DNA of 64,000 bases from Minisyncoccia bacterium (GCA_046293175.1 JBKBPM010000002.1:19176-83175); one strand, 5' to 3'. Shown: positions 3,273-50,217, counted from the first letter of the stretch. Notes: generated by a model not told the origin, from the sequence alone. A program made the numbers and translations.

Positions 3273-5611
3273 GTCCAGTTAGTAATTTCAATTGGATCGT
3301 CGCCGTGTTCGATAATGTACGCACGGTGTGATTCGAGCTTTTCTTGATAGACGTCGCGGAGTTGCTTGGCTTCCTGGGCCGTGATGACACGCGCGTGTTC
3401 AGCAATGGCAAACGCTTCCATCGCGAGATGATACCGGTCGACGTGATTGCGGACCATCATGTCAAAGGCGGTAGTGGTTGAACCACTTTCTTCGTAGCCG
3501 TGGACAGTAAAGCGAGTGGCATCTCCCCCATAATCAAAGAGGATTTGTTTGATGGTCTGTGGGTAGCCGTGGAAGTTGATGCGAACTGGTTTGTCTTCAG
3601 TAAAGTAGTCTTCAAATTCATGCCGAAGGACGAGGTGCTTGGAGTTGCCAAGTCCTCCGCCTGAAAGGGCATTGATGTTCACGTAGCGCATACGGAAAGC
3701 AGGGATTTCACGACGGACGATACTGATGGCCGCGAGCGTCTCCTGGGTTGGGTAGTCACCGGCTGAGGCAAAAACCATATGAGGGTCGTTGTCGGTAGCA
3801 AAGTCCCAAATAGCAATACCCATATCGATATCACGCTTGGCTTCAGTCGCGGTCCGCCAGATTGGGAGCGGGCGCTTTTCACAAACCATCACATTAATCT
3901 CTCGTTCACTATCCATCATGCGGGCAAAGGCTGCGAGCGCTAAGTTAGCGTCCGCTGGAAAATAGACATTGGTGAAATCACTTTGGCGTTGGAGTACTCC
4001 ATCAATAAAGCCGGGGTTCTGGTGCGAGAAGCCATTATGCTCTTGGCGCCAGCCAGTTGAAGTGAGGATGTAATTTAAAGACGCAATCGTGCCGCGCCAT
4101 GGCACCTGACGCGCAATCTTGAGGAACTTCGCGTACTGGTCGGTCATACTCGCAACAATCTGCGCAAAGGCTTCGTAAGACACGAGGAGCCCATGACGAC
4201 CAGTGAGTACGTACCCTTGGAGCAATCCCTGGAGACTGTGTTCGGAAAGCATCTCGAGGACTCGCCCATCGCGCGAGATGTCTTTGTCCCAGGGCTTTAG
4301 GGGCCAGAGAAAAGAGCGGGTGGTCGTCTCAAAGACAGCGTGGATTTTGTTTGAGTAGGTTTCATCCGGCGACATAAGACGGAGATTGCGACGGTCGGCA
4401 TTAAGCGTCATGGTATCGCGCAGGTAGGCACCAATTTTTTCCATACTACTTTCCATACCGCAGATGGGATCATCGAGGTTGCAGGTGTTTCCCGAACTAT
4501 AGGCGCTCGTGTCTGGGAGCACCAGCTTCTGGTAGTGCGGCTGACCACCACGGGCGTACGCTGAATTACCCATGCGTCGCTCGGGCGACGGAACCAGTGA
4601 CTCAATACCAGCTGTGAAGCCCTGCCCACTAAAGAGTTCGTCAAAGTGGTAAGAGCGAAGCCAAGTCTCGAGGGCGGCGAGATGCGTCTCGTTGGTCTTC
4701 GCGAATTCAGCAATCACCTGGTGTGAGGTGTGATTGTCTTCAATACGCTTACCATCAAGCTCGGGAATACTGTGCCAACCTTTGGGGGTACGTAAAATAA
4801 TCATAGGCCAGCGTGGTGGTTCTTTGAGGTTCCCCTCGCGAGCAATGTACTGGGTAAACTGAATAGCCGACACGGCGGTATCAAGTACCTCCATCATGCG
4901 GGTATGCACATCGGCCTCGGTATAGGCATCAACAATGTGTGGCTCGTAGCCATAACCGATGAATAGCGCGGTTAGTTCTTCGTCGCTCATCCGCCCGGCA
5001 AAAGTTGGACCAGAAATCTTGTACCCATTGAGGTGAAGAATTGGTAGCACAGCTCCATTGGTCGCTGGATCAACAAGCTTATTGAGGTGCCAAGCGGTCG
5101 CGGTAGGACCGGTTTCAAATTCACCATCACCAATGAGACACGCCGCGATAAGGGACGGATTATCAAGGACGGCACCGTAGGCGGTAGCAAGCGCGTAACC
5201 GAGTTCCCCACCTTCGAGAATCACTCCCGGAGCTTCCGGGTTACTGTGACTCGGGAAACCATACGGCCAACTAAACTGCCCAGCAAGGTAGGACAAGCCG
5301 GCTTCGGTACGAGGGATTTTTTCGTAGTACTGGCTGAGGGTACCTTCGAGGAAAAGATTCGCTTGTATCGCTGGAAAACCGTGGCCCGGACCAAGCACAA
5401 AGAGCATGTCGAGGTCACGAGCGACGATGGCGCGATTGAGGTGAGCGTAGGTAAAGTTGATACCTGGGCAGGTACCCCAGTGGCCCAAGAGACGAGACTT
5501 CACATGCTCCGGCGCCAATGGCTCCTCAAGGAGAAAGTTGGCTTGTAAGTAGATTTGAATGGCCGAGAGATAATCTGCGGCGCGGATGTATTCCAAAAGA
5601 GCTTCGCGCAT
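3257..5611 (-). CDS. xfp: xylulose-5-phosphate/fructose-6-phosphate phosphoketolase
   Basis: About 784 aa from internal Met MREALLEYIRAADYLSA; GHWGTCPG TPP-binding hallmark; upstream 10 codons of ORF likely not translated. Confidence 0.9.
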   Translation of the reverse strand: MREALLEYIRAADYLSAIQIYLQANFLLEEPLAPEHVKSRLLGHWGTCPGINFTYAHLNRAIVARDLDMLFVLGPGHGFPAIQANLFLEGTLSQYYEKIPRTEAGLSYLAGQFSWPYGFPSHSNPEAPGVILEGGELGYALATAYGAVLDNPSLIAACLIGDGEFETGPTATAWHLNKLVDPATNGAVLPILHLNGYKISGPTFAGRMSDEELTALFIGYGYEPHIVDAYTEADVHTRMMEVLDTAVSAIQFTQYIAREGNLKEPPRWPMIILRTPKGWHSIPELDGKRIEDNHTSHQVIAEFAKTNETHLAALETWLRSYHFDELFSGQGFTAGIESLVPSPERRMGNSAYARGGQPHYQKLVLPDTSAYSSGNTCNLDDPICGMESSMEKIGAYLRDTMTLNADRRNLRLMSPDETYSNKIHAVFETTTRSFLWPLKPWDKDISRDGRVLEMLSEHSLQGLLQGYVLTGRHGLLVSYEAFAQIVASMTDQYAKFLKIARQVPWRGTIASLNYILTSTGWRQEHNGFSHQNPGFIDGVLQRQSDFTNVYFPADANLALAAFARMMDSEREINVMVCEKRPLPIWRTATEAKRDIDMGIAIWDFATDNDPHMVFASAGDYPTQETLAAISIVRREIPAFRMRYVNINALSGGGLGNSKHLVLRHEFEDYFTEDKPVRINFHGYPQTIKQILFDYGGDATRFTVHGYEESGSTTTAFDMMVRNHVDRYHLAMEAFAIAEHARVITAQEAKQLRDVYQEKLESHRAYIIEHGDDPIEITNWTWHSR

Positions 5612-15922: not shown

Positions 15923-15960
15923 TTACCGTATAAAAAATGACTCGTTCCATCTTACTCACG

Positions 15961-16039
15961 CTTCTTACAGAAGCTGTACACCTTTTGGAAATCAAGGATT
16001 TCTCAAAAGGTCTTGCGGCAGTTCCCCAAACTGCCTCAC
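15961..16039 (+). repeat. intergenic repeat unit copy 1 (TTACAG-N6-TACACC box + variable-stem hairpin + TCAC)
   Basis: cttcttacagaagctgtacaccttttgg...caaaaggtcttgcggcag-ttccccaaa-ctgcctcac; family members at 41.5-41.9 kb and 48.5-48.7 kb. Confidence 0.55.
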
Positions 16040-16368
16040 CTGGTCTGAATTGATTATCAAGCCGAGTTAGACGAAAAAAACGCACTCTGGTGCGATTTTT
16101 TCGTGGGAACGACAGACGCATGCTCCTAGACGAAGTCCAGGTGGGCACCCTTTCCGATTTGTGTCTGAAATTTCTTGCGAATTCTCATTACTCCTCGCGA
16201 CTACAGGCAGCCCTGCGTGTTATATAACCGGAACATACGTGATGTCGTTCCTAGTACAGTATAACAAAAAAATTTTCTCACACCAAAGACTGAAATTCTT
16301 TGGTGTACATATGCATAGAAGAAAAGCGGGTAGATTTCGAGGAAAATATGAGGCACAAGAAAAAAGAC

Positions 16369-17225: not shown

Positions 17226-17262
17226 TAATAAAAAGAAAAAAGGCCGGGCTTTGCGTCCGGCC
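17226..17262 (-). terminator. rho-independent terminator of map
   Basis: ggccgg-gctttgcgt-ccggcc followed on minus strand by TTTTTTCTTTTT. Confidence 0.5.
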
Positions 17263-17427
17263 AGGTCCAACAGGGAGGATGCCGCGCCATAACCCCGACA
17301 CGACCAGGGGAACCACTACATTCAGTGTATGCCTGTACGTGGCTACTGTCAAAATAAATCTGGGACAAACAGATATACCCCGATCGATTGGAGTATTGTC
17401 AATATGAAATGTGAGGACGTTAACAGA

Positions 17428-34374: not shown

Positions 34375-35049
34375 TTAGCAATCACTACCGCTACCGCGCC
34401 GTGAACACGCTCCGCCATCTGTGGTTGGCTTTGGTGCCGTACAGTTACTATCAGACACAATCGAGCCGTACTGATCACGACATTCTACCGTACGGACATT
34501 TCTTCCGTTGGTTGTGCTACATGAAGGTGGCCACGGCGCGTTACAAGCATAGGCGCCGGTTACCCACCCATAGACCGGGGTTGAACATTCGGCTAATACA
34601 ACGGTGTGATATTGGTACGTACGTCCAACTGAAGCACAGACATTAGCGGCACTTCCAGTCATTGGTCGGATATACGTACTGTTATCATTTCCATCCCCAC
34701 TCCAGTTCCAGTTACAGGTTACGGCCCAAGCTGGTTCAAAGCATTTTCCCCCAACAATAATTGGGTCATCACCTCCACCCCCTCCTGGTGCACCAGTTGA
34801 TGGATCCCAACAGTTGGCGCCGAGTTCGTCACAATAACGTGGGGACCAGGTTGAGGTAGCAGCCGCCACTATATTAGCCATAAAGTTACCGGTCTTTGCT
34901 TGGGTGGTAGCACCAACATTTATTGGCGCAGGAGTATTATCATTTGGTGCAGTGGCGGTGGGTGCAGACCACTGGGCAGACATGAAGTTGTAGCTTACAA
35001 AAAGAAGGGCAACAAGGCTAAAGATGGCTAAGGAGCGATATTGTTTCAT
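34375..35049 (-). CDS. secreted Cys-rich protein, cassette-family paralog A
   Basis: Signal peptide MKQYRSLAIFSLVALLFVS; conserved N-module ...WDPSTGAPGGGGG; 12-Cys variable C-terminus. Confidence 0.55.
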   Translation of the reverse strand: MKQYRSLAIFSLVALLFVSYNFMSAQWSAPTATAPNDNTPAPINVGATTQAKTGNFMANIVAAATSTWSPRYCDELGANCWDPSTGAPGGGGGDDPIIVGGKCFEPAWAVTCNWNWSGDGNDNSTYIRPMTGSAANVCASVGRTYQYHTVVLAECSTPVYGWVTGAYACNAPWPPSCSTTNGRNVRTVECRDQYGSIVSDSNCTAPKPTTDGGACSRRGSGSDC

Positions 35050-35140: not shown

Positions 35141-36001
35141 TTATGAGCAAGACCGAGTACTACCGAAGGTAACTCCAGTTGGCAATACACAACCAAGACT
35201 AAAACCAGACCCAGCACCAGTTGCCCCAGTGGCTGTCCCGTATGAAGCACATGCGCTAAAATCCCAACTAGCTGGCACATTGAATGAATCCCGCCAATTA
35301 CCAGAAAGTGCAACCGAGCAGAATTTCAGGTCCTGGGCTGCGGTTGATCCACCCGAATTACAGGCTGAGGTACTACCAAACGTCACACCAGTATCGGTCA
35401 AACAACCCATTTGTCGTCCTACTGCGCCGGTTGTTGTCTGAAAACTGGCACACTGAGCATCTCCAAAGCTTGCTGGCACGAGAATAGTATCGCGCCAGTT
35501 CCCAGAAGCAGCAACTACTGAACAAAACTTTCGTGATGGCATCGGTTCTGCAACCGCCCCATCACAGGCGGTATCGTCGTTCTCATAAAATTTATCACCA
35601 GCAATGCAGCCAAAAGCATAGCTCGTCGCACCTACAGCAGTCATAAAGCTCTGGCAGGTAGTGCTGGTCCAAGACCCAGGAACTACAATCGTATCGCGCC
35701 AATTACCACTTACGAGTACTGAACAAATCTTGTACACCAAGCCGTTACCGTTAGCAGCGGTACAATTATTCCCGAGAGCATCACAGTAGCGGTTTGAGCG
35801 CATCTCCGTTGTGGCGGCCAAGATATTGGCGGCCAAGTTGCCATTCTTAGCCTGAGTGGTTGTACCAACATTTATTGGCGCAGGAGTATTATCATTTGGT
35901 GCAGTGGCGGTGGGTGCAGACCACTGGGCAGACATGAAGTTGTAGCTTACAAAAAGAAGGGCAACAAGGCTAAAGATGGCTAAGGAGCGATATTGTTTCA
36001 T
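35141..36001 (-). CDS. secreted Cys-rich protein, cassette-family paralog B (three internal about 68-aa 4-Cys repeats)
   Basis: First about 47 codons and 13 nt of 5'UTR identical at DNA level to paralog A; repeats SGNWRDxIxVPxS...GVTFGSTSxC. Confidence 0.55.
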   Translation of the reverse strand: MKQYRSLAIFSLVALLFVSYNFMSAQWSAPTATAPNDNTPAPINVGTTTQAKNGNLAANILAATTEMRSNRYCDALGNNCTAANGNGLVYKICSVLVSGNWRDTIVVPGSWTSTTCQSFMTAVGATSYAFGCIAGDKFYENDDTACDGAVAEPMPSRKFCSVVAASGNWRDTILVPASFGDAQCASFQTTTGAVGRQMGCLTDTGVTFGSTSACNSGGSTAAQDLKFCSVALSGNWRDSFNVPASWDFSACASYGTATGATGAGSGFSLGCVLPTGVTFGSTRSCS

Positions 36002-37381: not shown

Positions 37382-37973
37382 TTATGGTGCGCGCAATTCA
37401 CGGACTACATAGTGACCATTACCAGAATTAGTGGTCAGGGTACCAAATCTATAATAATGTCCTGGCGAAATAATAATGGTTGAACCGTTATCAAGATCAC
37501 TGTCATAGTCTTGGTAGTTCATTCTCACTGAGGTGGTAGTTGAAACACCCACATCGATAATCGTACCGTCCCAAATATTCTTATGGAAAACCATAATTGG
37601 CTGATCAGTATTATTTTGGTACCAAACACCCTGGGTACGGTTAACCACTTGCCACGTTTGATTATAACCAATACCACCCCCCGCCCGGCGCGCCAGTACT
37701 TGGATCCCAACAATTATTCCCGGTCTCATCGCAGTACTGTGGAGACCAGGCGGAGGTAGCGGCCGCCACTATATTAGCCATAAAGTTACCGGTTTTGGCT
37801 TGGGTGGTAGCACCAACATTTATTGGCGTAGGAGTATTATCATTTGGTGCAGTGGCGGTGGGTGCAGACCACTGGGCAGACATGAAGTTGTAGCCGGTAA
37901 GAAGGCTTGGGCAGATAACTAACGGGATAAAAGCAAGGGTTTCTTCATATGTAGTCATTCTATTAAGAGACAC
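37382..37973 (-). pseudogene. cassette-family paralog C; reading frame broken at a C6-G-C3 homopolymer (37677-37686); N-terminal signal region replaced
   Basis: ORFs 37662..37973 and 37382..37729 overlap; DNA 37762-37896 about 98% identical to paralog A 34862-34996. Confidence 0.45.
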
Positions 37974-38379: not shown

Positions 38380-38531
38380 AGATAGTAATTAATTTACTCA
38401 TCATAGTGGAAGTGTGCTTGGGATGCCTCAGATACGAGGAGAAACAAAGTTTTGGAAGAAGGCGTATTTATATACGACGACTGACTAAACTGAAGTTTCG
38501 ACAAAGTAGATGAGGTATATCCAAGTGCACT

Positions 38532-40314: not shown

Positions 40315-41436
40315 TTATACTTCCACAGCTACTGGTATAACCTCAATACTCAATCGTTCTTCGACAGTGCCATACGCACCCGTACAGGTCATACGTACAG
40401 TGGCAGTATTCATAATTGGACCAGTCTGTACAGAGCCACTGACCGCACCAACCGCTAAATTGGTAATACCAGGACCGTTAATTACACAAGTATTCCCAAT
40501 GAGTGATGATAGACTCCAGGTCACGGTAGCGGTGTTACCACGCCGTACTATTGGTGGAATGGCATTGAGATCCATTGTTGGACTAGTAGTACCAGTGCCG
40601 AGTATACAAATACCGCCACTAGGTATTAGACCAGCTGCACAGGTGGCACTGAGGGTAACCGCATCGAGCATGGTAGTACCACTACGAGCATGGAAGGTGG
40701 TATTACCAAGACCGATGGTTACACCAAAGTTTGTTTGTGTGTGGTTCGTACTCAATTGACTGGCCGGAGCCGTTACCCGATATATATTTGGTGAGGCTAC
40801 ACTGTTATCAATATCCCAATTAAGCTGGGTAACACAGGTACTTGCGTTCTGTGCTACCATACAGTTATTACCCCAGATAGTGGCGCTTGTGGTGGCGAAA
40901 GTAACGTGTGAAAACATATCAATCCAACCAACCACCTCACTTCCCCAAGCGTATGAATCTGCGTTCATACCGGTTGCCATATTTGATGTGATGGCATGAT
41001 TGGTGCCGCGCAGTGAAATCCAACCATCCCAAGCACCAGCTTCAGGATTGTTACTCATAGTACTGCAGGTACCACCAAGTGTCCCCGCACATGCCCTGGC
41101 CCAGCCACTCCAAGTGAGGTTTGGATATGTACCGGTCAAGCGAGCATTTTCTGCTGCCGTACCGCCACCGGTTGGGAAACCAGCAAGACCGCCAAACTTG
41201 ATCCAGCCAATATTACTACTCCAACCCCAGCCGGTGATAGTCCGGTCGGCGTTAATGGTTACTTTGTAGTCACTTGAGGCACAGTTACTATCATTACGAC
41301 AGTTGAGTGAAATCCATCCGATATTACTGCTCCAGGCAAAGCCATCGAGATCAATCGGAGCTGGAAGTGTCTGGGCATGAGCAAAGGCCGCTCCAACAAA
41401 TAGCATAGCGAGTAAAAACAACTGGTACAGTTTCAT
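40315..41436 (-). CDS. secreted repeat protein (SSNIGWI / GW-type repeats)
   Basis: Signal peptide; repeated WSSNIGWISL, WSSNIGWIKF, WDGWISL, VGWIDMF motifs. Confidence 0.45.
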   Translation of the reverse strand: MKLYQLFLLAMLFVGAAFAHAQTLPAPIDLDGFAWSSNIGWISLNCRNDSNCASSDYKVTINADRTITGWGWSSNIGWIKFGGLAGFPTGGGTAAENARLTGTYPNLTWSGWARACAGTLGGTCSTMSNNPEAGAWDGWISLRGTNHAITSNMATGMNADSYAWGSEVVGWIDMFSHVTFATTSATIWGNNCMVAQNASTCVTQLNWDIDNSVASPNIYRVTAPASQLSTNHTQTNFGVTIGLGNTTFHARSGTTMLDAVTLSATCAAGLIPSGGICILGTGTTSPTMDLNAIPPIVRRGNTATVTWSLSSLIGNTCVINGPGITNLAVGAVSGSVQTGPIMNTATVRMTCTGAYGTVEERLSIEVIPVAVEV

Positions 41437-41533
41437 ATACTAGTAGTATAGGGTACAGAATGATACAAAGGAGGCGCTTGTACACAAATGGGGGATACCG
41501 TTATCAGATGCTTTTCTTGTTATGCTTCTTCCA

Positions 41534-41562
41534 TTAGATCCTTCTTCTTACAGAAACTATAT
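41534..41562 (+). repeat. intergenic repeat family, truncated copy 2a (box only)
   Basis: cttcttacagaaactatataccatttggg. Confidence 0.4.
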
Positions 41563-41581
41563 ACCATTTGGGCATTTCATT

Positions 41582-41674
41582 TCTTTACCCTTTTACAGAC
41601 ACTATACACCTTGTCGCTACTTTATTTCGTTTCACTCATAAAGTACCTGGCAAGGTCTTGCTAAAGTGACCCGC
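41582..41674 (+). repeat. intergenic repeat family copy 2b (type A)
   Basis: tttacagacactatacaccttgtcgctactttatttcg...ctggcaaggtcttgctaaagtg-acccg-cactttctcac. Confidence 0.55.
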
Positions 41675-41840
41675 ACTTTCTCACTCATAGAATTCCTCAA
41701 ATGGTCTTGCAGAATATGAACGGATTAATAAAAAGGCTCTCTCTGGAGCGCCTTTTCTTATGCCTCTTCTACAATATCCTTCAAGGTCAAGTCATTAAAT
41801 ATATTTCTTACTTGGTTCAAAATCTTCTCAGTGCTTCCCG

Positions 41841-41936
41841 CTTACAGCGGCAGTACACCTTTTGGATATCTTGTTTCGTTTCACTTACAAATTATCACAA
41901 AAAGTCGTGCGAAATGGGGTCCCATTCCATTTCTCA
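41841..41936 (+). repeat. intergenic repeat family copy 2c (type B)
   Basis: cttacagcggcagtacaccttttggatatcttgtttcgtttcac...caaaaagtcgtgcgaaatgg-ggtcccatt-ccatttctcac. Confidence 0.55.
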
Positions 41937-42056
41937 CCCCCCGCCTCGCTGATTCGGCGCCTGTAGAGTCGCCCTACTTCGTTCCGGCTCGTCAAAGATA
42001 TAGTGGGAAGACATATATAAAGAGAGCACCCTCGTCGGGTGCTCTCTTTATTATTA

Positions 42057-44228
42057 TTATGCTTCCTCCACTATATCTTTGACACCTCTCGACTTCTTGA
42101 TTTCCATTGCCACGTTTGGTGGGACGACATCATAGTGATCGAAAGTCATGGTCATACTAGCGCGACCTTGAGTCATCGAACGGAGAGTGTTTGTGTAACC
42201 AAACATTTCAGAGAGTGGTACTTGGGCGGTAATCACCTTCTTATCACCAAGATCGGTCATTCCCTCTACCTGACCACGCTTACTCGAGATATTTCCGTTA
42301 ACGTCACCCATGAACTGCTCTGGAGTACGCACTTCAACCTTCATTACTGGTTCAAGGAGCACAGCACCGGCCTTCGCTGCTGCTTCCTTAAAGGCGTAAA
42401 TAGCCGCAAGCTTAAAAGCAATTTCACTTGAGTCTACTTCATGGAATGATCCATCATAGAGCTCCACAGTCACGTCTTCCATCTTGTAACCGGCCACAAA
42501 ACCACGTGCCATCGCTTCACGACAACCCTTCATAACAGCTGGGATAAATTCACCTGGGATCGCCCCTCCTTTGATACTGTTCACAAACTCAAAGTGATCT
42601 TCACGAGTGACATTCTTGGGCACTTCCTTCCCTTCTTCAAGTGGTTGCATTGGGCGAATCTTAATCTTGACGTGTCCGTACTGTCCACGACCACCAGATT
42701 GCTTTGCGTACTTGTAGTCTGCTTCAGCTTCGTGTTGAATCGTTTCTCGATAGGCTACCTGAGGAGCACCAACGTTAGCTTCTACACCAAATTCACGCTT
42801 CATACGGTCAACGAGAATTTCTAGGTGAAGCTCACCCATACCCTGAATAATCGTCTGCATGGTTTCTTCGTCAGTAGAAACGATGAAGGTTGGATCCTCG
42901 TCAGAGAGCTTCTTGAGTGCAGTACTCATCTTCTCCTGGTCATTTTTGGTCTTCGGTTCGACACTCATTGCGACCACTGGTGCTGGGAACACAATTTGTT
43001 CAAGAATGATTGGATTCTGCTCATCACAAAGTGTATGTGATGTCTTTACATCTTTGAGTCCTACGCCAGCCGCAATTTCGCCTGCGTATACTTCTTCGAT
43101 TTCTGTACGTTTATCGGCCTGGAGTCGCACGATACGACCAAGACGTTCTTTCTGACCAGTTGTCGCATTGTAGATATAGCTACCAGCTTTTACCACACCT
43201 GAGTACACACGGAAGAAAGTGAGCTGCCCCACAAATGGGTCAGTCTGTAGCTTAAACGCAAGCGCGCAGAATGGTTCTTCATCTGAAGCAGTGCGAGTGA
43301 TTTCCGCTTCGGTATCTGGATTTGTACCCTTAACTGCTTCGAGGTCAGTTGGTGCGGGAAGATAATCAACTACACCGTCAAGTACGAGCTGGACGCCAAT
43401 GTTTTTCAAAGCTGAACCAGTGAACACGGGGAAAATTTCGTTAGCAATCACCGCTTTACGGAGAGTGGCTTTGATTTGTTCATTCGTTGGCAATTCTCCA
43501 TTAAGATAGGCCTCCATCAAGGCATCATCATGCTCTACAACACGCTCAATGAGCTCGGCGCGGTACATTTCTGCATCATCCTTAAGCTCGGTCGGAATCT
43601 CATGCTCCACAATTTTAGTACCCATTTCTCCTTCGAAGGTATATGCCTTCATGCGGATAAGATCTACAACACCTTTGAAGTGTTCTTCCGCACCCCAGGG
43701 AAGTTGTACTCGTACGGCCTTCTTTGAAAGTCGGTCAAGAATACTGGCATATGACTTCTCAAATGATGCACCCATACGGTCCATCTTGTTGATGAAACAG
43801 AGACGAGGCACTTTCGCTTCGTCGGCGTAACCCCAGTTGGTTTCAGACTGTGGTTCTACTCCAGCTACTGAGTCAAATACGACGACAGCACCATCAAGTA
43901 CACGCATTGAACGCTTTACTTCAGCGGTGAAATCGATGTGACCGGGTGTGTCGATAATGTTAAAGGTGTACATCTGTGACTTGTCTTTACGATCAGTCAC
44001 ATCTGATTTTGACCAGTTACAAGAAATCGCGGCCGCGGTAATGGTGATACCACGTTCACGTTCCTGTTCCATCCAGTCGGTTACCGTCGCACCATCATGC
44101 ACTTCACCAATCTTATGTGACATACCGGTATAGAAAAGCACGCGCTCTGAGGTAGTAGTTTTACCAGCATCAACGTGCGCAACAATACCGAAGTTACGCA
44201 TTCTATTAATAGGAAATTCTCGGGCCAT
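42057..44228 (-). CDS. fusA: elongation factor G
   Basis: 723 aa; [10 protein letters not shown]-domain. Confidence 0.95.
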
Positions 44229-44403
44229 ACTATAATTTATGTATAAAGGTTTATTAATGTGCGTCTTTTACAAAACACGATTGGGGCGCGTACTAGAAAA
44301 GAAAAAGCCAATGAGGCGTCGCGCGTGTACTATACGGTATTTGGCATCTTTCGGCAATAGGAAATGGATTGGCCGAAGCAAACCCAAGAAGCGAACAATT
44401 GGA

Positions 44404-45729
44404 CTAATAGCCTAGTATCTTCATTGCAGCGAGCACCCGCTTTGCACCAGCAATATTGGCGCCGCGCACATAATCAATTCCCCAATCCGCTTTGCCCTCT
44501 GTCTTACAGAGTTCATGGATATTTTCCATGATAGCAACGAGTTTTGCCTCCACTTCCTCGGCTGACCAGGGATAATGGGCGGCATTCTGGGCCATCTCAA
44601 GTCCTGATACTGCCACCCCGCCAGCATTACTCGCTTTGCCGGGGGCGTGAGCAATATGTGCATCATGGAGGACCGCCACCGCCTCGTTTCTAAGTGGCAT
44701 ATTAGCCCCTTCGACAACAAGCACGGCGTGACTAGCAATTACCCTAGCATCGACTTCATCAATTTCGTTTTGAGTAGCGCAAGGGAAATAACCATCAGCC
44801 ACTACGGTTTGCCAGGGTGTACCGATTATAAACGTAGTACCTGAAATAGCTACGGTGTCGAGGTTAGCACCGGTGTCTTTATGAGCGATAATCGCATCGA
44901 TATCACTTATAGTTAGACCAGCTTCTTTGTAAAGGTAACCAGTGCGATCAGACAAGGTTAGAACCACCGCACCTTCGGATACCAGTTTCCGAGCCGTATG
45001 CTCGGCCACGTTACCAGATCCAGAGACCACACAGCGTAATCCTACCAAAGTCTTCCCTACTTCACGAAGCATGGCGCGAGCGAAATACACAACTCCATGC
45101 CCAGTTGCAGCAGTGCGACCAAAACTCCCACCAATCAGAGGATCTTTGCCAGTCATCGCCCCTTCACTACGATGGGTCAGTTCCTTATACATACCCATCA
45201 TGTAGCCAATCTCGCGACCACCAACACCCATGTCCCCAGCTGGTACATCTATTTCGACACCAATATGGTGGTGGAGCTCAACCATAAACGCTCGACAAAA
45301 ACTGCGAATTTCGCTGTCGCTGCGACCTTTTGGATTAAAATCGCTTCCCCCTTTCCCTCCCCCTAAGGGAAGACCCGTCAGGGCATTTTTGAAAATTTGC
45401 TCAAATCCGAGGAATTTAAGCACATCCTCATTCACTGTCGGATCAAACCGCAGACCACCCTTATATGACCCGAGCGCTGAATTGAATTGCACTCGGTAAC
45501 CAATATTGTGTTCAATTGCACCTTGATCATTGGTCCACAATACTTTAAAAGCAATAATACGCTCCGGAATAGCAAGCCGTAAAAGCCGTTCGTAGTCTTC
45601 TTTAGTCGCACCCGTAGCTTTTAAGTATGGTTCCAAAGTTACGAAAACTTCCACAACAGCTTGCAAAAAAGTTGGTTGATGTGGCAAGTGAGCGGTTAAG
45701 GCAGCCAAAACGTCAGTGGTCGATGTCAT
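44404..45729 (-). CDS. gdhA: NADP-specific glutamate dehydrogenase
   Basis: 441 aa; GGGKGG and Rossmann motifs. Confidence 0.9.
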   Translation of the reverse strand: MTSTTDVLAALTAHLPHQPTFLQAVVEVFVTLEPYLKATGATKEDYERLLRLAIPERIIAFKVLWTNDQGAIEHNIGYRVQFNSALGSYKGGLRFDPTVNEDVLKFLGFEQIFKNALTGLPLGGGKGGSDFNPKGRSDSEIRSFCRAFMVELHHHIGVEIDVPAGDMGVGGREIGYMMGMYKELTHRSEGAMTGKDPLIGGSFGRTAATGHGVVYFARAMLREVGKTLVGLRCVVSGSGNVAEHTARKLVSEGAVVLTLSDRTGYLYKEAGLTISDIDAIIAHKDTGANLDTVAISGTTFIIGTPWQTVVADGYFPCATQNEIDEVDARVIASHAVLVVEGANMPLRNEAVAVLHDAHIAHAPGKASNAGGVAVSGLEMAQNAAHYPWSAEEVEAKLVAIMENIHELCKTEGKADWGIDYVRGANIAGAKRVLAAMKILGY

Positions 45730-45799
45730 AGCTATCAGTATACGCCTCTTTGGTGGAGGCTTCCAATAGTCACTGTTTAGCCATTAGTCGTCATCAGAT

Positions 45800-46771
45800 T
45801 TACCGGAATTGTCTTCCTTTTTTATCCTCACCCTTATCTTCGTCCTCATTTTTATCATCATCACCTTCGCGGTCTTTTGAACGTTCGTCATCATCGTCGC
45901 GCCTATCCCTCATATCATTTACACTGCCATGACCACTCGTATCACGCTTATCTTCTTCCTCATGGTCATCATCATTTAAATCATCGCTTTCCTTGTCACG
46001 TGGATTACTATCATCAAACTTATTGTCATCATCCTTATGAATACTTCGGTCATTATCGCTATCGTTATCATCACGATGATTATCATCATGGCCTATGCGA
46101 ACCTCGAGTTCGCCATCATCACGACTGCGTACTCGCATAGTTTCGGTACGGATCTCAAAACGATCATCATCGATACGCAATCGCATATCATCACCTTCGC
46201 GACCATGCACACGAACTTCGTCAATTAAAGAAATAACTGCTCGTCGCCGACTTTCGGTATCTGACTGAGGTAGCTGCTCAGCTTGCCGCAAAAATGCATC
46301 TACGGCTCGCGCGATCCGCTCTTCACCCTGTTCATTAACTTTTAAGCTATCGGAGATTTCTTCGATTTCCCTTTTAGTCCTCTCGACTTCTTCTGCAATA
46401 ATAGCCGTCAGTTCTTGTTGGCGCTCGTCTAAAAAGGCAGAACGAAGTTCCACTTTACGTGCTTCACTAGCCAACAATAGACGCATTGCCTCAGTTTTTT
46501 GATCAACTGAAAATAGCCAATCTCCTGGCTTAGCCGCTTCGGCAGCGGCTACTGTGCCGCCTAAACCAACCACCAAAAATACTCCAAACAATCCCGCCAC
46601 TAAAGACCGTGCAGGCTTTTGGAGCCACATTGTATACGGGGACACAATCTTGGTCGACACTGGCATACCACCCGACACCTGTTCCATCACTCGAACAAAC
46701 ATCGCCTCCCGAGCCGGTATAGATTGTTCCGGCCGACTGACGTGCATTTTTTCATCAAATAAATCTTTCAT
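45800..46771 (-). CDS. putative anti-sigma factor / membrane protein with extremely acidic-basic low-complexity C-terminal tail
   Basis: Immediately downstream of sigma factor gene; one TM helix; D/E/R/K/H-rich tail. Confidence 0.4.
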   Translation of the reverse strand: MKDLFDEKMHVSRPEQSIPAREAMFVRVMEQVSGGMPVSTKIVSPYTMWLQKPARSLVAGLFGVFLVVGLGGTVAAAEAAKPGDWLFSVDQKTEAMRLLLASEARKVELRSAFLDERQQELTAIIAEEVERTKREIEEISDSLKVNEQGEERIARAVDAFLRQAEQLPQSDTESRRRAVISLIDEVRVHGREGDDMRLRIDDDRFEIRTETMRVRSRDDGELEVRIGHDDNHRDDNDSDNDRSIHKDDDNKFDDSNPRDKESDDLNDDDHEEEDKRDTSGHGSVNDMRDRRDDDDERSKDREGDDDKNEDEDKGEDKKGRQFR

Positions 46772-46781
46772 GATGCTCGTG

Positions 46782-47309
46782 TTACGTGAGTAATGTTCCT
46801 AAAAATTCCTTCGCTCGGTGATGCCTCGTCCGTACTGCCCCTTCCTCTATCCCGAGCAAGACACCGATTTCTTTAAAGCTCAACCGTGACCAGTGATGAA
46901 GGACCACAATCTCCCGCGCTGTCTCATCGAGTGCAGTAAGAGCTGATGCGACATCAAGTCGGATTGCTCCCACTTCGACAGTCGAGCTTCCTTGCTCACT
47001 CACCGTTGTTTCATCAAGCGTCTTTGGCTGTCGTTTTTGGTTTTCATATGTCTGCGCTAATTGCCGACGTACGATAGTAAATACATACTGATAAAGCTGT
47101 GGCGTGGTTGTATAAGTAAAAGTCGGTACAGCTTTGAAAAAAGCAATGAGGGTTTCCTGCACTATATCAGCTGCTTGTTCCGCTTCAAACACCCGTGACC
47201 GCACATAGGCATACAACCGCGGCTCAAGTTCATCAAAGAGCGCTTGGTAGGCCTGTTGGTCTCCCGCTTTTGCGGCTTCACACTGTGTTTGCCACTCATG
47301 GTCAGTCAT
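46782..47309 (-). CDS. ECF-type (sigma-70 family) RNA polymerase sigma factor
   Basis: 175 aa; region 2 (YQYVFTIVRRQ) and region 4 HTH (LSFKEIGVLLGIEEGAVRTRHHRA). Confidence 0.75.
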   Translation of the reverse strand: MTDHEWQTQCEAAKAGDQQAYQALFDELEPRLYAYVRSRVFEAEQAADIVQETLIAFFKAVPTFTYTTTPQLYQYVFTIVRRQLAQTYENQKRQPKTLDETTVSEQGSSTVEVGAIRLDVASALTALDETAREIVVLHHWSRLSFKEIGVLLGIEEGAVRTRHHRAKEFLGTLLT

Positions 47310-47368
47310 AAAGGTGAGCCAACTTACCCTATATATGGGTTAAGCTGGGCAAAACGTTACATTAATGA

Positions 47369-48382
47369 TTATTCTCCGTCTGCGGTAGTGGCTTCATCAG
47401 CATATTCAAGAGCCTGTCCCGCGAGGACAAAGACCATGGTACTACCATCAGCCAATGTAAAGGTGAGGTTGCCATTCTCTGCTTCATCGTACGACTTAAT
47501 CTGACTCACCATCTCGAAGTACGGCCCCTCTTCTTTGGAATCACAAAACTTCTTGGTCGCTGCTACCGCGCCAAAGGTCATAGCAGAGGAAGTTCCCATT
47601 GGTGGAACATACTCGCTACTACCGGTATTACAGTCGGTTCCGAGAGATACCCGCGGTCCATCAAACAGCATGGTAAATACATCCGGTGTCGAGGGTTTAA
47701 CTACCGTGCCATCTGCCTTTTTTGTTTCACGCCAAATGTACTTACCTTTGAATTCTTTAGCAGCAAAAGCCGCTTCCTGCCAAGGCTTGCGACCTTCTTG
47801 GATAAAGGTGCCGGTGGTAATGTCTATAATAGCGGTGGTCTGCACCCTGGGTACTTCAGTCATAGCTTGATTTTGATCGTGCACAAAATACGTGACGGTA
47901 ACAGTATTACCCTCCCGCGTTAGTTTGGTCACCCGAATCCGGTCACCGAGGAATACTGAAGAAACGTGATTAAAACTTGTATCATTCTCGTCAATGAGCG
48001 CCAAATATACAAATGATCCTGTGCCTGGTGTAGAAACAACAATTGGTACCGCTCGGCGGCCGTTTTCTAGGTTAGTCGCAAAATCATCCATCGCGTAGAG
48101 TTGGCCTTCGCCAGTACCGGTAGCGAGCGCAAAACGATTCATTGGATAGTCACGAGTCGCTGATGGATAAATCAAATCAAGGACAACTTTGGTTGCCGGT
48201 TGATCTGGTACCACAAAGGTCTTACCTTTCATACTGTGCGCTACTGGTGGGATAGTCCAGGCATTAGGGTCACGAGTATAACGTGGCGGTTTTTCCGGTT
48301 CATAAAAGAAGTACCAATACGCACCACCCGCCAATACCGCAGTTACTACAACACCCAAACCAATAAAAAGATACTTTCTCAT
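47369..48382 (-). CDS. membrane-anchored protein with C-terminal META (HslJ-like) domain
   Basis: N-terminal TM; C-terminal GTDCNTGSS...FCDSKEEGPYFEM pattern of META/DUF306. Confidence 0.45.
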   Translation of the reverse strand: MRKYLFIGLGVVVTAVLAGGAYWYFFYEPEKPPRYTRDPNAWTIPPVAHSMKGKTFVVPDQPATKVVLDLIYPSATRDYPMNRFALATGTGEGQLYAMDDFATNLENGRRAVPIVVSTPGTGSFVYLALIDENDTSFNHVSSVFLGDRIRVTKLTREGNTVTVTYFVHDQNQAMTEVPRVQTTAIIDITTGTFIQEGRKPWQEAAFAAKEFKGKYIWRETKKADGTVVKPSTPDVFTMLFDGPRVSLGTDCNTGSSEYVPPMGTSSAMTFGAVAATKKFCDSKEEGPYFEMVSQIKSYDEAENGNLTFTLADGSTMVFVLAGQALEYADEATTADGE

Positions 48383-48482
48383 GCACTATCTTTAGAATTA
48401 CTCGGGTAGTATACCAGATTGTTTTGGAGTAACGACATGTTATTTCAATTCCAAGAATGCGTTCAAAAAGCATTCAGACAAG

Positions 48483-48574
48483 TGAGAAAGCGCGGGGCGC
48501 TTTCGTAAAACCTTTTGCGATAGTTTGTGAGTATAACAAAACAAACTAGCCAAAAGGTGTACTGTTCCTGTAAG
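48483..48574 (-). repeat. intergenic repeat family copy 3b (type B, inverted orientation)
   Basis: Reverse complement reads cttacaggaacagtacaccttttggctagtttgttttg...caaaaggttttacgaaagcgc-cccg-gcgctttctcac. Confidence 0.55.
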
Positions 48575-48602
48575 GAAGCGCAAACGGGGCGTATATAGAC
48601 AC

Positions 48603-48684
48603 TTCTTACAGAAGCTGTACAGGTTGTCGCTATTTTTTCATAATAGCTGGCAACCTCTTGCGAAAGTCTCCCAGACTTTCTCAC
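48603..48684 (+). repeat. intergenic repeat family copy 3a (type A), head-to-head with 3b
   Basis: cttcttacagaagctgtacaggttgtcgctattttttcataatagctggcaacctcttgcgaaagtct-ccc-agactttctcac. Confidence 0.55.
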
Positions 48685-48738
48685 GATGAGTGTTTCTGAG
48701 TGTAGCGCAACAAATTCTGAGAGATTTTTGGACGCGTT

Positions 48739-50217
48739 CTAGAGTGCTTTTGCAAGGTCAAGAATCTCATCGATGCGTATCTGCTCCACAAAATCTGGTA
48801 CGTGGGAAACGAGAATCATCGCGCCTTTGTAGTTATGCAAGGCTTTTGCAATCACGGGGATATGGCGGAAGTTAATGTGGTTCGTTGGCTCATCGAGAAT
48901 CAAAAGACCTGGTCGCTCCATGGTCAGCTTGGCGAAGGCAACGAGACCTTTCTGTCCTTCTGAGAGATTTCCAACCTTATTCTTCATGACATCACTGTAC
49001 AAAAGAAAGCCAGCGGCAATCGAACGCATATCTTCTTCAATCTTCCTTGGCATTGAATCCATAAGAGTTTCAAAGACCGTCTTATCAAAATCAAGATTAG
49101 AAAAGTCTTGTCGATAGTAGCCAATTTTTACCCCCGGCGCGACATGTTCACCCTTGGCGTGTCCAGAAGCGATTGACTCGAGGAGAGTAGTCTTCCCAAT
49201 ACCGTTTGGACCAATGATTTGGAGATGGGACCCACGTTTCAAAACCAAATCACATTCTACCTCTTTTGGCTGGTGGTTCTTGATAACTTTGTACGAAGTG
49301 AGTCGCACTACTTCAAGTGGTACTTCGCCTTGGGTCTCAATGGTAAATGCACGAATAGTCCGGTCTTCTTTACGAACATCAACTTTGTTTTCTTCGGCTT
49401 CCTCAACATCATCACGCATGCGCTTCGCGACAAGACGCATCTTACCCCCCTTACTTGCAAAGTAGTTAATCTTATCTTTGTCAGCCTGAATTTGTTTGGC
49501 GAGCTGGGCATTCTGGCGCTGCTCTTTTTCAACTCGCGCCGCAATATCCTTGAGCACTGTGTGATAGTTACCATTATATTGCTCAACCTGGCGATTTTGA
49601 GTGTTAAGGTATAATACCCCATCGGTAAACGAGTTGAGGAACTCAGCATCGTGCGAAATCACCAATACTGTCTTCTTATACTCCTTGAGGAAAACCGTGA
49701 GGTGCTCAATACCGGCTATATCAAGATTGTTCGTTGGTTCGTCAAGAAGGAGCACATCAGGATCTTGAATCAGCGCCTGCGCAAGCAAAAGACGAGCCTG
49801 CTGCCCACCAGAAAAACTCCCGATGATACGCTCTTTAAAACTCTCTTTGATCTTCTCGGTTGGGGTGAGGTTTACGATTTCAAGGACGGCATCAATCCGC
49901 GGGTCAATGTCATAAACCTTCTCCTTAAAACAATTTTCAAAAAAAGCACGTACCGTGAGAGTAAGTTCATCACGGGGAATAATCTGCCTCGAAATCGCGA
50001 TCGTGGTACGAGGCTGAATATTAATATCACCTGAATCAGGCGTGAGAGTCCCGGAAATAAGTCCAAAAATAGTACTCTTTCCAGCCCCATTTTGACCCAT
50101 TAGGGTCATCTTGGCCCCTCGACGCACCACAAAATTCGCCTCCTTAAGAATGGGGCGAGTGGGATCGTGTTCAAACGACACATCATTAAAAACAATGAGA
50201 CCATCTGCGCGTGACAT
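48739..50217 (-). CDS. ABC-F family ATPase (tandem ABC domains, no TMD; translation-factor-like)
   Basis: Two Walker A/B + signature motifs (LSGGQQARLLLAQAL; LSEGQKGLVAFAKL). Confidence 0.85.
   Translation of the reverse strand: MSRADGLIVFNDVSFEHDPTRPILKEANFVVRRGAKMTLMGQNGAGKSTIFGLISGTLTPDSGDINIQPRTTIAISRQIIPRDELTLTVRAFFENCFKEKVYDIDPRIDAVLEIVNLTPTEKIKESFKERIIGSFSGGQQARLLLAQALIQDPDVLLLDEPTNNLDIAGIEHLTVFLKEYKKTVLVISHDAEFLNSFTDGVLYLNTQNRQVEQYNGNYHTVLKDIAARVEKEQRQNAQLAKQIQADKDKINYFASKGGKMRLVAKRMRDDVEEAEENKVDVRKEDRTIRAFTIETQGEVPLEVVRLTSYKVIKNHQPKEVECDLVLKRGSHLQIIGPNGIGKTTLLESIASGHAKGEHVAPGVKIGYYRQDFSNLDFDKTVFETLMDSMPRKIEEDMRSIAAGFLLYSDVMKNKVGNLSEGQKGLVAFAKLTMERPGLLILDEPTNHINFRHIPVIAKALHNYKGAMILVSHVPDFVEQIRIDEILDLAKAL

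Follow-up and report, generated by a model that had tools for sequence, protein, structure and literature searches.

Dispersed, structured intergenic repeats are a kind of element already known, and the closest described ones are the repetitive extragenic palindromic (REP) sequences and bacterial interspersed mosaic elements (BIMEs; REPINs) of Enterobacteria and Pseudomonas, which are spread by REP-associated tyrosine transposases (RAYTs). Here we describe a repeat unit of three hairpins (P0, P1 and P2) that occurs as a head-to-head pair in the spacer at positions 48383–48738 of a 64,000-nucleotide stretch from a Minisyncoccia bacterium (GCA_046293175.1, JBKBPM010000002.1:19176-83175; the whole stretch is called the window below). 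This three-hairpin repeat family is previously undescribed. With REP/BIME it shares a high copy number, an intergenic location in either orientation, hairpins with compensatory stem changes, the lack of terminal inverted repeats and target duplications, the occurrence as single copies, tandems and inverted pairs, and long persistence at some orthologous sites. Both have a conserved tetranucleotide just 5′ of a hairpin, GTAG in REP and GTAC here, where it stands ahead of P1 in 111 of 127 units. However, a REP is a single palindrome of 20–40 nt, whereas the unit measures 75–110 nt and has two further hairpins besides P1. Inverted doublets are a minority here and not the predominant form that they are in REPINs, the consensus is class-wide rather than limited to a genus or family, and no RAYT gene was found among the neighbouring open reading frames (ORFs) and the window ORFs checked.

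The BOX elements of Streptococcus pneumoniae (boxA-boxB-boxC) and the ERIC/IRU elements of Enterobacteria are likewise modular and strongly structured, measure ∼100–150 nt, are scattered in either direction over intergenic DNA that is probably transcribed, and consist of modules that vary or duplicate. They too have no known transposase, terminal inverted repeats or obvious target duplication. Their sequences are unrelated to those of the units, which further differ in the fixed order P0-P1-P2, the invariant loops, the far wider phylogenetic spread and the small size of the host genomes (∼1 Mb or less).

Palindrome-associated transposable elements (PATEs), derivatives of the insertion sequences IS200/IS605, also carry hairpins near both ends, no inverted termini or target duplication, and invariant short end motifs. 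In the units these motifs are TTAC and TCAC, which recall the IS608 cleavage sites TTAC and TCAA. Here, however, TTAC sits in the loop of the P0 hairpin; as the 5′ arm of this hairpin covaries and follows semi-conserved bases, the motif does not appear to be flank alone. A clear replication-strand bias, which in IS200/IS605 places the active strand on the lagging-strand template, is also missing, the GC skew on the unit strand being positive in 49 cases against 64 with negative skew, a weak bias that if anything points the other way. A derivation from IS200/IS605 seems unlikely because the 5′ arm around TTAC belongs to the unit in at least some subfamilies and the expected strand bias was not seen. 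Finally, small RNA (sRNA) families such as csRNAs, Qrr and LhrC resemble the units in size, in covarying stems with conserved loops and in having several paralogues per genome. They have 2–9 copies, though, against dozens here, and the units have no promoter or terminator of their own, include nested and decayed copies and correspond to no Rfam model.

The architecture, three hairpins with invariant loops and a class-wide consensus in genomes this small, is undescribed. Full-text literature searches turned up no account of a comparable repeat or RNA from Patescibacteria; the one recurrent match was a TIGR-Tas paper, which concerns different arrays. We tentatively favour the reading that the units are a class-wide family of non-autonomous structured intergenic repeats, REP/BOX-like, that would be recognised as a folded single strand.

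Structure and covariation of the unit

P0 is a hairpin of 4–5 bp with the loop TTACA. Its 5′ arm lies upstream of the box TTACAG-N6-TACA(CC/GG), by which the repeat had been recognised in the preliminary description, and its 3′ arm consists of the first four nucleotides of the N6. The junction C-N-GTAC then leads to P1, a long hairpin of variable length with the base ACCTT/AAGGT, sometimes AGGTT/AACCT or ACTCATTG/CAATGAGT, and a distal part that is short, medium or long. P1 is followed by CTTGCGAAA and by P2, whose loop is often UCCCA, and the unit ends in TTTCTCAC-C-Y. The preliminary description had divided the unit into a box and a terminal hairpin. All terminal stems that it listed are present and pair. 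An additional hairpin, however, has TTACA as its loop, and the stretch from the box to the terminal hairpin forms a long hairpin of its own, P1. The two subtypes that it distinguished, A and B, are variants of P1.

In an alignment of 121 units conservation sets in sharply ∼5 nt before TTACA and halts 2–3 nt past CTCAC; the 3′ boundary, after CTCAC-C-Y, is sharp as well. The 5′ arm of P0 is preceded by a semi-conserved CTCG in one subfamily, and in one subfamily TCG occurs in the flank on either side of the unit (9 units, Fisher p 3.5e-4); these flanks look like an extended subfamily consensus, not a duplication. A closing helix that would pair the 5′ and 3′ flanks was rejected, as its effect was marginal.

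Pairing in the 121-unit alignment was compared with two controls, in which the pairing partners were slid by 1–3 columns or the columns were shuffled. Standard pairs fill 92% of the pair cells, compared with 35–49% after sliding and 74.8% in column shuffles. Changes on both sides of a pair were seen in 474 cells against 149 in shuffles, the observed number being reached by none of 500 shuffles, and the covariation score was 0.378, compared with at most 0.085 for the slid controls. Sixteen of the 25 pairs change on both sides, with many compensatory changes in all three stems. The three variable P0 pairs each occur as three or four Watson-Crick types, with 3–6 broken cells of 121. The compensatory covariation first proposed from the six copies in the window was thus not only kept but strengthened with the larger alignment.

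Covarying stems with invariant loops are the classic pattern of an RNA family, and one alternative is a multicopy structured RNA family of which the units would be the genes or processed segments, organised like tRNA genes. Such an RNA would be cut from longer transcripts and act in trans or in a ribonucleoprotein, with contacts at the UUACA loop, GUAC, CUUGCGAAA, the CUCACC tail and the C-rich UCCCA loop; the tail and the UCCCA loop resemble anti-Shine-Dalgarno-like seeds. In its favour, the length of P1 varies like that of an expansion segment, 46 units keep a U·G wobble at a single position of P1, and orthologous units are maintained by compensatory change. Sense-strand folds also had stronger z-scores than antisense folds. 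We counted 75 G·U pairs and 53 A·C mismatches, 46 of the G·U pairs being at the single P1 site. As A·C is as frequent as G·U outside that site, the antisense strand folds about equally well, and neither strand stands out.

Searches of Rfam 15, with gathering thresholds and by E-value, gave no match at the loci; the preliminary description had not matched the repeat to a known family either. The gathering scan of the window returned SorX alone, at another position, and the E-value scans of loci 2 and 3 (units 2a–2c and 3a/3b, respectively) gave sub-threshold noise. ARAGORN predicted no tRNA or tmRNA.

Distribution, arrangement and turnover

The family was searched for in bacteria and archaea, using one genome per species and an exact pattern derived from the window copies. 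The pattern matched at least 118 stretches in at least about 85 species-level assemblies, and with the covarying structure this bears out the proposal of a genuine repeat family. The covariance model found 127–138 units in ∼0.7 Mb of fetched loci (given L numbers below), ∼30–40 of them beyond the unit by which each locus had been fetched. This corresponds to about one additional copy every 20 kb, and the density is about one copy per 13–24 kb; the window has five per 64 kb. The model could be applied directly to all genomes of the candidate phyla radiation and to metatranscriptomes.

Nearly all matches listed are labelled as Patescibacteria lineages, namely Parcubacteria, Paceibacteria/Paceibacterota, Kaiser-, Taylor-, Zambryski- and Nomurabacteria, Minisyncoccia, Patescibacteria group and uncultured ‘Saccharibacteria’. 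The repeat was also found in six contigs with other labels (L005, L049, L030, L063, L066 and L092), from metagenome-assembled genomes assigned to Acidimicrobiales, Pirellula, Nitrospira, Bdellovibrionales, Anaerolineaceae and Flavobacteriaceae. L005 (‘Acidimicrobiales’) and L049 (‘Pirellula’) are syntenic with the ribosomal cluster of the window and therefore mis-binned, and in such cases the units serve as a practical marker that exposes the error. The match in L057 was discarded as a chance match, since the structure is absent, and so was the single match among IMG/VR viral contigs. The closest relative among the matches listed is L107, which is syntenic with window positions 40903–48244 at 72–80% identity. 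The window can therefore be assigned to a Parcubacteria/Paceibacteria genome.

Most units are single, and tandem, head-to-head, tail-to-tail and nested arrangements also occur. Among neighbouring units at least 11 arrangements are tandem, compared with 3 head-to-head and 3 tail-to-tail pairs (an example of the latter is L110). Composite double units, similar in design to the nested arrangement in the window (unit 2b), are present in L086 and L107. In the abutting tandems of L092, L106 and L112 the CACC tail of one unit doubles as the 5′ arm of P0 in the next. L092 is a 1.65-kb contig whose end is a tandem array, and in this way the units break assemblies.

The pair at 48383–48738 had been described as two units arranged head-to-head around a TATATA, together forming a ∼200-bp palindromic element like a miniature inverted-repeat transposable element (MITE). 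The layout is as claimed, with unit 3b on the minus strand and unit 3a on the plus strand, and the pair is an imperfect palindrome of ∼200 bp with arms ∼74–78% complementary. It is intergenic and without a transposase, which would suit a classical MITE, a deletion derivative of an insertion sequence with a DDE transposase and terminal inverted repeats. However, the basic form of the family, and its norm, is the single unit, and close relatives of 3a in L096 and L087 stand alone without a partner. Tandems outnumber inverted pairs of either kind, as given above. The ends of a unit, NNNNC-TTACA... and ...TTTCTCAC, are not inverted copies of each other. Target-site duplications were looked for in the 121 units at left offsets of -10 to +4 and right offsets of -5 to +4, with k of 3–6, and none was found at any boundary, the best case being 13 of 121 units against 7.7 expected. 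The spacers of the other head-to-head pairs differ in length (21 nt in L006 and 11 nt in L068) and are unrelated in sequence, so the inter-unit spacer cannot count as a conserved feature of the family. The ∼0.8 Mb of fetched loci and the 143 neighbouring ORFs yielded no parent insertion sequence. We consider a MITE origin highly improbable; on the repeat reading, the pair at 48482–48684 is simply two units that landed 24 nt apart.

The units are gained, swapped or decayed at syntenic sites. The relatives of 3a in L096 and L087, which lie at non-orthologous loci, are 80–91% identical to it, including ∼20 nt on each side, while the flanks further out cannot be aligned and the neighbouring genes differ. 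At one syntenic site a unit is present in L090, a remnant in L111 and none in L087. Between some orthologous units P1 or P2 has been exchanged for another common variant (L003/L006, L093/L104), and compensatory changes of P0 were seen between unit 2c of the window and L107 and between L067 and L076.

We infer that the units move, as these arrangements suggest, that a trans-acting protein recognises them and that a single-stranded DNA intermediate is involved. On the repeat reading, the stems need only pair and would covary for this reason, and the constant parts (TTACA, C-N-GTAC, CTTGCGAAA, the UCCCA loop and TTTCTCAC-C) would presumably be read by a conserved trans-acting factor. The units would multiply and move as discrete segments of ∼90 nt. 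They exchange modules by recombination or gene conversion, and at orthologous sites some have been kept while others have decayed. A cut-and-paste transposase of the DDE type is unlikely because neither inverted termini nor target duplications are present. More likely would be host recombination or a single-strand mechanism that recognises hairpins, as HUH/Y1 or RAYT enzymes do. Where the spacer is transcribed, the hairpins would also act on RNA, for example on mRNA end stability or processing.

Several observations weigh against this reading. Neither a mobilising enzyme nor an autonomous element with the same ends was seen in the sampled loci, and movement is deduced rather than observed, as no clean pair of filled and empty sites was recovered. 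The class-wide conservation of loops and junctions, together with the compensatory changes between orthologues, looks like long-term purifying selection on a functional RNA. The wobble asymmetry (75 against 53) does not decide the strand, and the weak bias of the GC skew is unlike that of IS200/IS605. Finally, certain neighbours recur, MsrA four times and SecDF four times in different species, which fits retention no less than insertion.

A broader reading, which we regard as unlikely, is that the units are no junk repeats but the substrate of an undescribed hairpin-reading system conserved across Paceibacteria, either as the RNA of a ribonucleoprotein or as a single-strand mobile element. In the former variant an abundant RNA with tRNA-like gene organisation could use its anticodon-loop-like C-UUACA-G and its UCCCA loop as contacts. 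In the latter the fast-evolving P0 helix could pair the element with the DNA beside it; where two units abut in tandem, GGTG of the second is the pairing partner of the CACC tail of the first.

The genomes of Parcubacteria/Paceibacteria are among the smallest and most streamlined in bacteria, and to our knowledge no member is in pure culture. Dozens of copies per genome, with loops constant across the class, point either to a selfish element that has long persisted and co-evolved with these reduced genomes or to something the cells need. Either would imply a conserved factor that reads folded single strands.

Genomic position and transcription signals

The units are intergenic, and apparent cases inside ORFs are short spurious ORFs or ORF ends. 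We also noted an uninterrupted ORF of 392 codons in L052 (2885–4063, minus strand) that contains a unit at 3577–3663 on the same strand; it may reflect two genes joined by chance read-through, or a coding region that tolerates a unit. Relative to the flanking ORFs, 29 units are opposite to both, 19 have the same orientation as both, 12 lie between divergent and 10 between convergent ORFs.

No position-specific promoter was found upstream of the units, and sigma70-like sites were not enriched there relative to two controls. Nor is there a dedicated terminator: a sense-strand terminator follows 26 of 119 units, and the control gave 29 of 121. For want of a promoter and terminator of their own, the units were rejected as ordinary stand-alone sRNA genes. 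These results also bear on the multicopy RNA family considered above, whose promoter would be neither fixed nor enriched. Furthermore, divergent pairs 11–24 nt apart leave no room for two promoters, one copy per 13–24 kb in genomes of ∼1 Mb is far above known sRNA families, and the nested, decayed and split copies count against it, as does the failure to match Rfam. In support of an RNA, unit 2c is conserved between the window and L107 together with ∼85 nt downstream and a terminator. On balance we find the RNA family, the main alternative to the repeat reading, somewhat unlikely. Both readings were among those that the preliminary description had left open, namely a REP/MITE-like repeat, a small structured RNA and a regulator-binding module.

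An improbable alternative is that the units are cis-acting regulatory or punctuation modules, either regulator sites or RNA insulators and processing sites placed by the host where operons meet. The direct repeat TACAG-N6-TACAC, as read from the sequence, has an 11-bp period like that of OmpR/PhoB-type boxes, units of the ribosomal supercluster lie at operon boundaries (behind fusA, behind tuf in L022 and ahead of an ECF sigma operon), and the same neighbour families recur. However, the box is a covarying hairpin, needless for a regulator that binds duplex DNA, and its second half-site varies (GTAC, GTCC, GTTC). Orientation and distance to genes are unconstrained, the neighbours are functionally unrelated, and tandem and nested copies make no regulatory sense. 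A WalR/OmpR-type direct-repeat box was accordingly rejected, as the arms around TTACA covary as a hairpin. The likeness of type A to a sigma-54 -24/-12 promoter (TGGCAA-N4-TTGC) was rejected as well, since its spacing falls short by one base and the other types lack the motif.

The neighbouring genes are ordinary and mutually unrelated. An association with positions upstream of secreted or membrane-protein genes, suggested by the window copies, failed across 133 neighbouring ORFs. The observation that no transposase lies nearby was confirmed among the 143 neighbouring or intervening ORFs and the window ORFs checked. The Y1 transposase family was not found among the neighbour ORFs or the window ORFs checked, and there was no sign of tnpA or tnpB copies whose ends match those of the units. 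Orphan left ends, considered as possible marks of an autonomous element of the form ‘left end ... gene ... right end’, were few and chance-like.

Units and other features of the window

We counted 6 copies of the box TTACAG-N6-TACA(CC/GG) in the window, compared with 0.94 expected, and none of 100 shuffles had as many. By the covariance model, which was built from 121 members, the full units number exactly five, with 72–89 bits; the next match has 12.5 bits. The fold z-scores of the units against shuffles range from -3.0 to -5.4. The six copies reported earlier are therefore six boxes, but only five full units plus one that is split by an insertion. The coordinates are collected in Table 1. 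The spacer that holds 3a and 3b is flanked by two minus-strand genes.

Table 1. Coordinates of the units and associated features in the window. Bits are covariance-model scores; model span is the extent of the covariance-model match.
Feature	Position	Strand	Details
Boxes	15965, 41548, 41593, 41842, 48606	plus	
Box	48573	minus	
Unit c1, short form	15960-16039	plus	81.3 bits; model span 15957-16045; fold -27.6 kcal/mol, z -4.6; P0 GCTTC/TTACA/GAAGC; short P1; P2 GGCAGTT-CCCCA-AACTGCC; tail TCAC
Intergenic spacer with decayed remnant	38380-38531	minus	remnant TACGCCTT ... TGTTTCTC-CTCGTATC; pairwise alignment
Outer unit ‘2a’, 5′ half	41544-41589	plus	P0; TTACAG 41548-41553; junction CTATATACC; P1 5′ arm ACCATTTGGGCATTTCATTTC
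Unit 2b	41590-41684	plus	71.6 bits; model span 41585-41690; nested in P1 loop of another unit
Outer unit, 3′ half	41685-41712	plus	P1 3′ arm ...CCTCAAATGGT, then CTTGCAG; aligns with L107 unit d
Unit 2c	41838-41937	plus	74.8 bits; model span 41834-41943; P0 CCGC/TTACA/GCGG; long P1; P2 AAATGGGG-TCC-CATTCCATTT
META-domain protein gene	47369-48382	minus	borders spacer 48383-48738; then extracytoplasmic function (ECF) sigma factor and DUF5667 protein
Unit 3b	48577 to 48482	minus	head-to-head with 3a; 83.9 bits; model span 48476-48581; fold -28.5 kcal/mol, z -5.0
3b P0 5′ arm	48577-48574	minus	
3b TTACAG	48573-48568	minus	
3b P1 and P2		minus	long P1 ACCTTTTGG.../...CAAAAGGT; P2 GAAAGCGC-CCC-GCGCTTTC
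3b tail CTCAC	end at 48482	minus	
Spacer between divergent units 3b and 3a	48578-48601		24 nt; TATATA at 48592-48597; read from sequence
Unit 3a	48602-48684	plus	89.2 bits; model span 48598-48690; fold -28.9 kcal/mol, z -5.4
3a P0	48602-48605 / 48611-48614	plus	loop TTACA 48606-48610
3a junction CTGTAC	48615-48620	plus	
3a P1	48621-48656	plus	AGGTTG.../...CAACCT variant
3a CTTGCG	48657-48662	plus	
3a P2	48662-48680	plus	
3a tail TCAC	48681-48684	plus	
ABC-F type ATPase gene	48739-50217	minus	borders spacer 48383-48738

The nesting of 2b was established by alignment. When 41590–41679 is deleted, the flanks align end to end with unit d of L107, with a score of 222 compared with 176 for the uninterrupted sequence. 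Since the deleted segment is unit 2b, 2b lies inside the P1 loop of another unit. The 5′ arm of its own P0 is not complementary, and its boundaries are ambiguous by a few bases (2–5 nt), so that the inserted segment is either 41590–41679 or reaches 41684. The outer unit gives only a weak covariance-model match at ‘2a’ (6.8 bits) because it is split. It belongs to a subtype without P2 and continues into a hairpin-T terminator at ∼41732–41760. In the orthologue of 2c in L107, P0 is CTCC/GGAG, a compensatory change. The remnant on the minus strand is below detection by the covariance model; at the syntenic place in L022 an intact unit lies between the two conserved genes.

Downstream of 2c, ∼85 nt and the terminator (41938–42056, plus strand) align well by eye with ∼1560–1680 of L107. 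This segment might be a 3′ extension of 2c or a separate small feature.

Pseudo-copies of the reverse-complemented 3′ end of the elongation factor G (EF-G) gene (TTATGCYTCTTCYAYWAKATCCTTC...) precede the units of locus 2 at 41500–41545 and 41750–41800 (plus strand), and L107 also has such pseudo-copies. They indicate tandem duplication of blocks consisting of unit, terminator and gene 3′ end downstream of fusA, local duplications that are driven by the units. The terminators behind 2b and 2c are part of the duplicated modules of EF-G 3′ end and terminator.

A small hairpin at 16270–16312 (plus strand; ACCAAAGA...TCTTTGGT) lies between TTTTCTCAC and GTAC and is missed by the covariance model. 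With its unit-like motifs in an odd arrangement, it is possibly a rearranged remnant.

Two further observations concern other parts of the window. A full-length match to the Rfam family SorX (RF02784) was found between map and ndk at 17236–17310 on the minus strand, with 61.7 bits against a gathering threshold of 46.6 (E 5e-15 in the local scan). It comprises a hairpin, the single-stranded CCUCCCUGUUGGACC and a GC-rich terminator followed by U6, and its GC content is 0.65. SorX has been described in Rhodobacter, and the match is therefore unexpected in a Parcubacteria genome. In addition, a direct repeat of 217 nt is present in three copies, 69–88% identical, at 34778–34994, 35730–35946 and 37678–37894. 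The copies lie in adjacent minus-strand ORFs and appear to be tandem paralogous genes, unrelated to the hairpin units.

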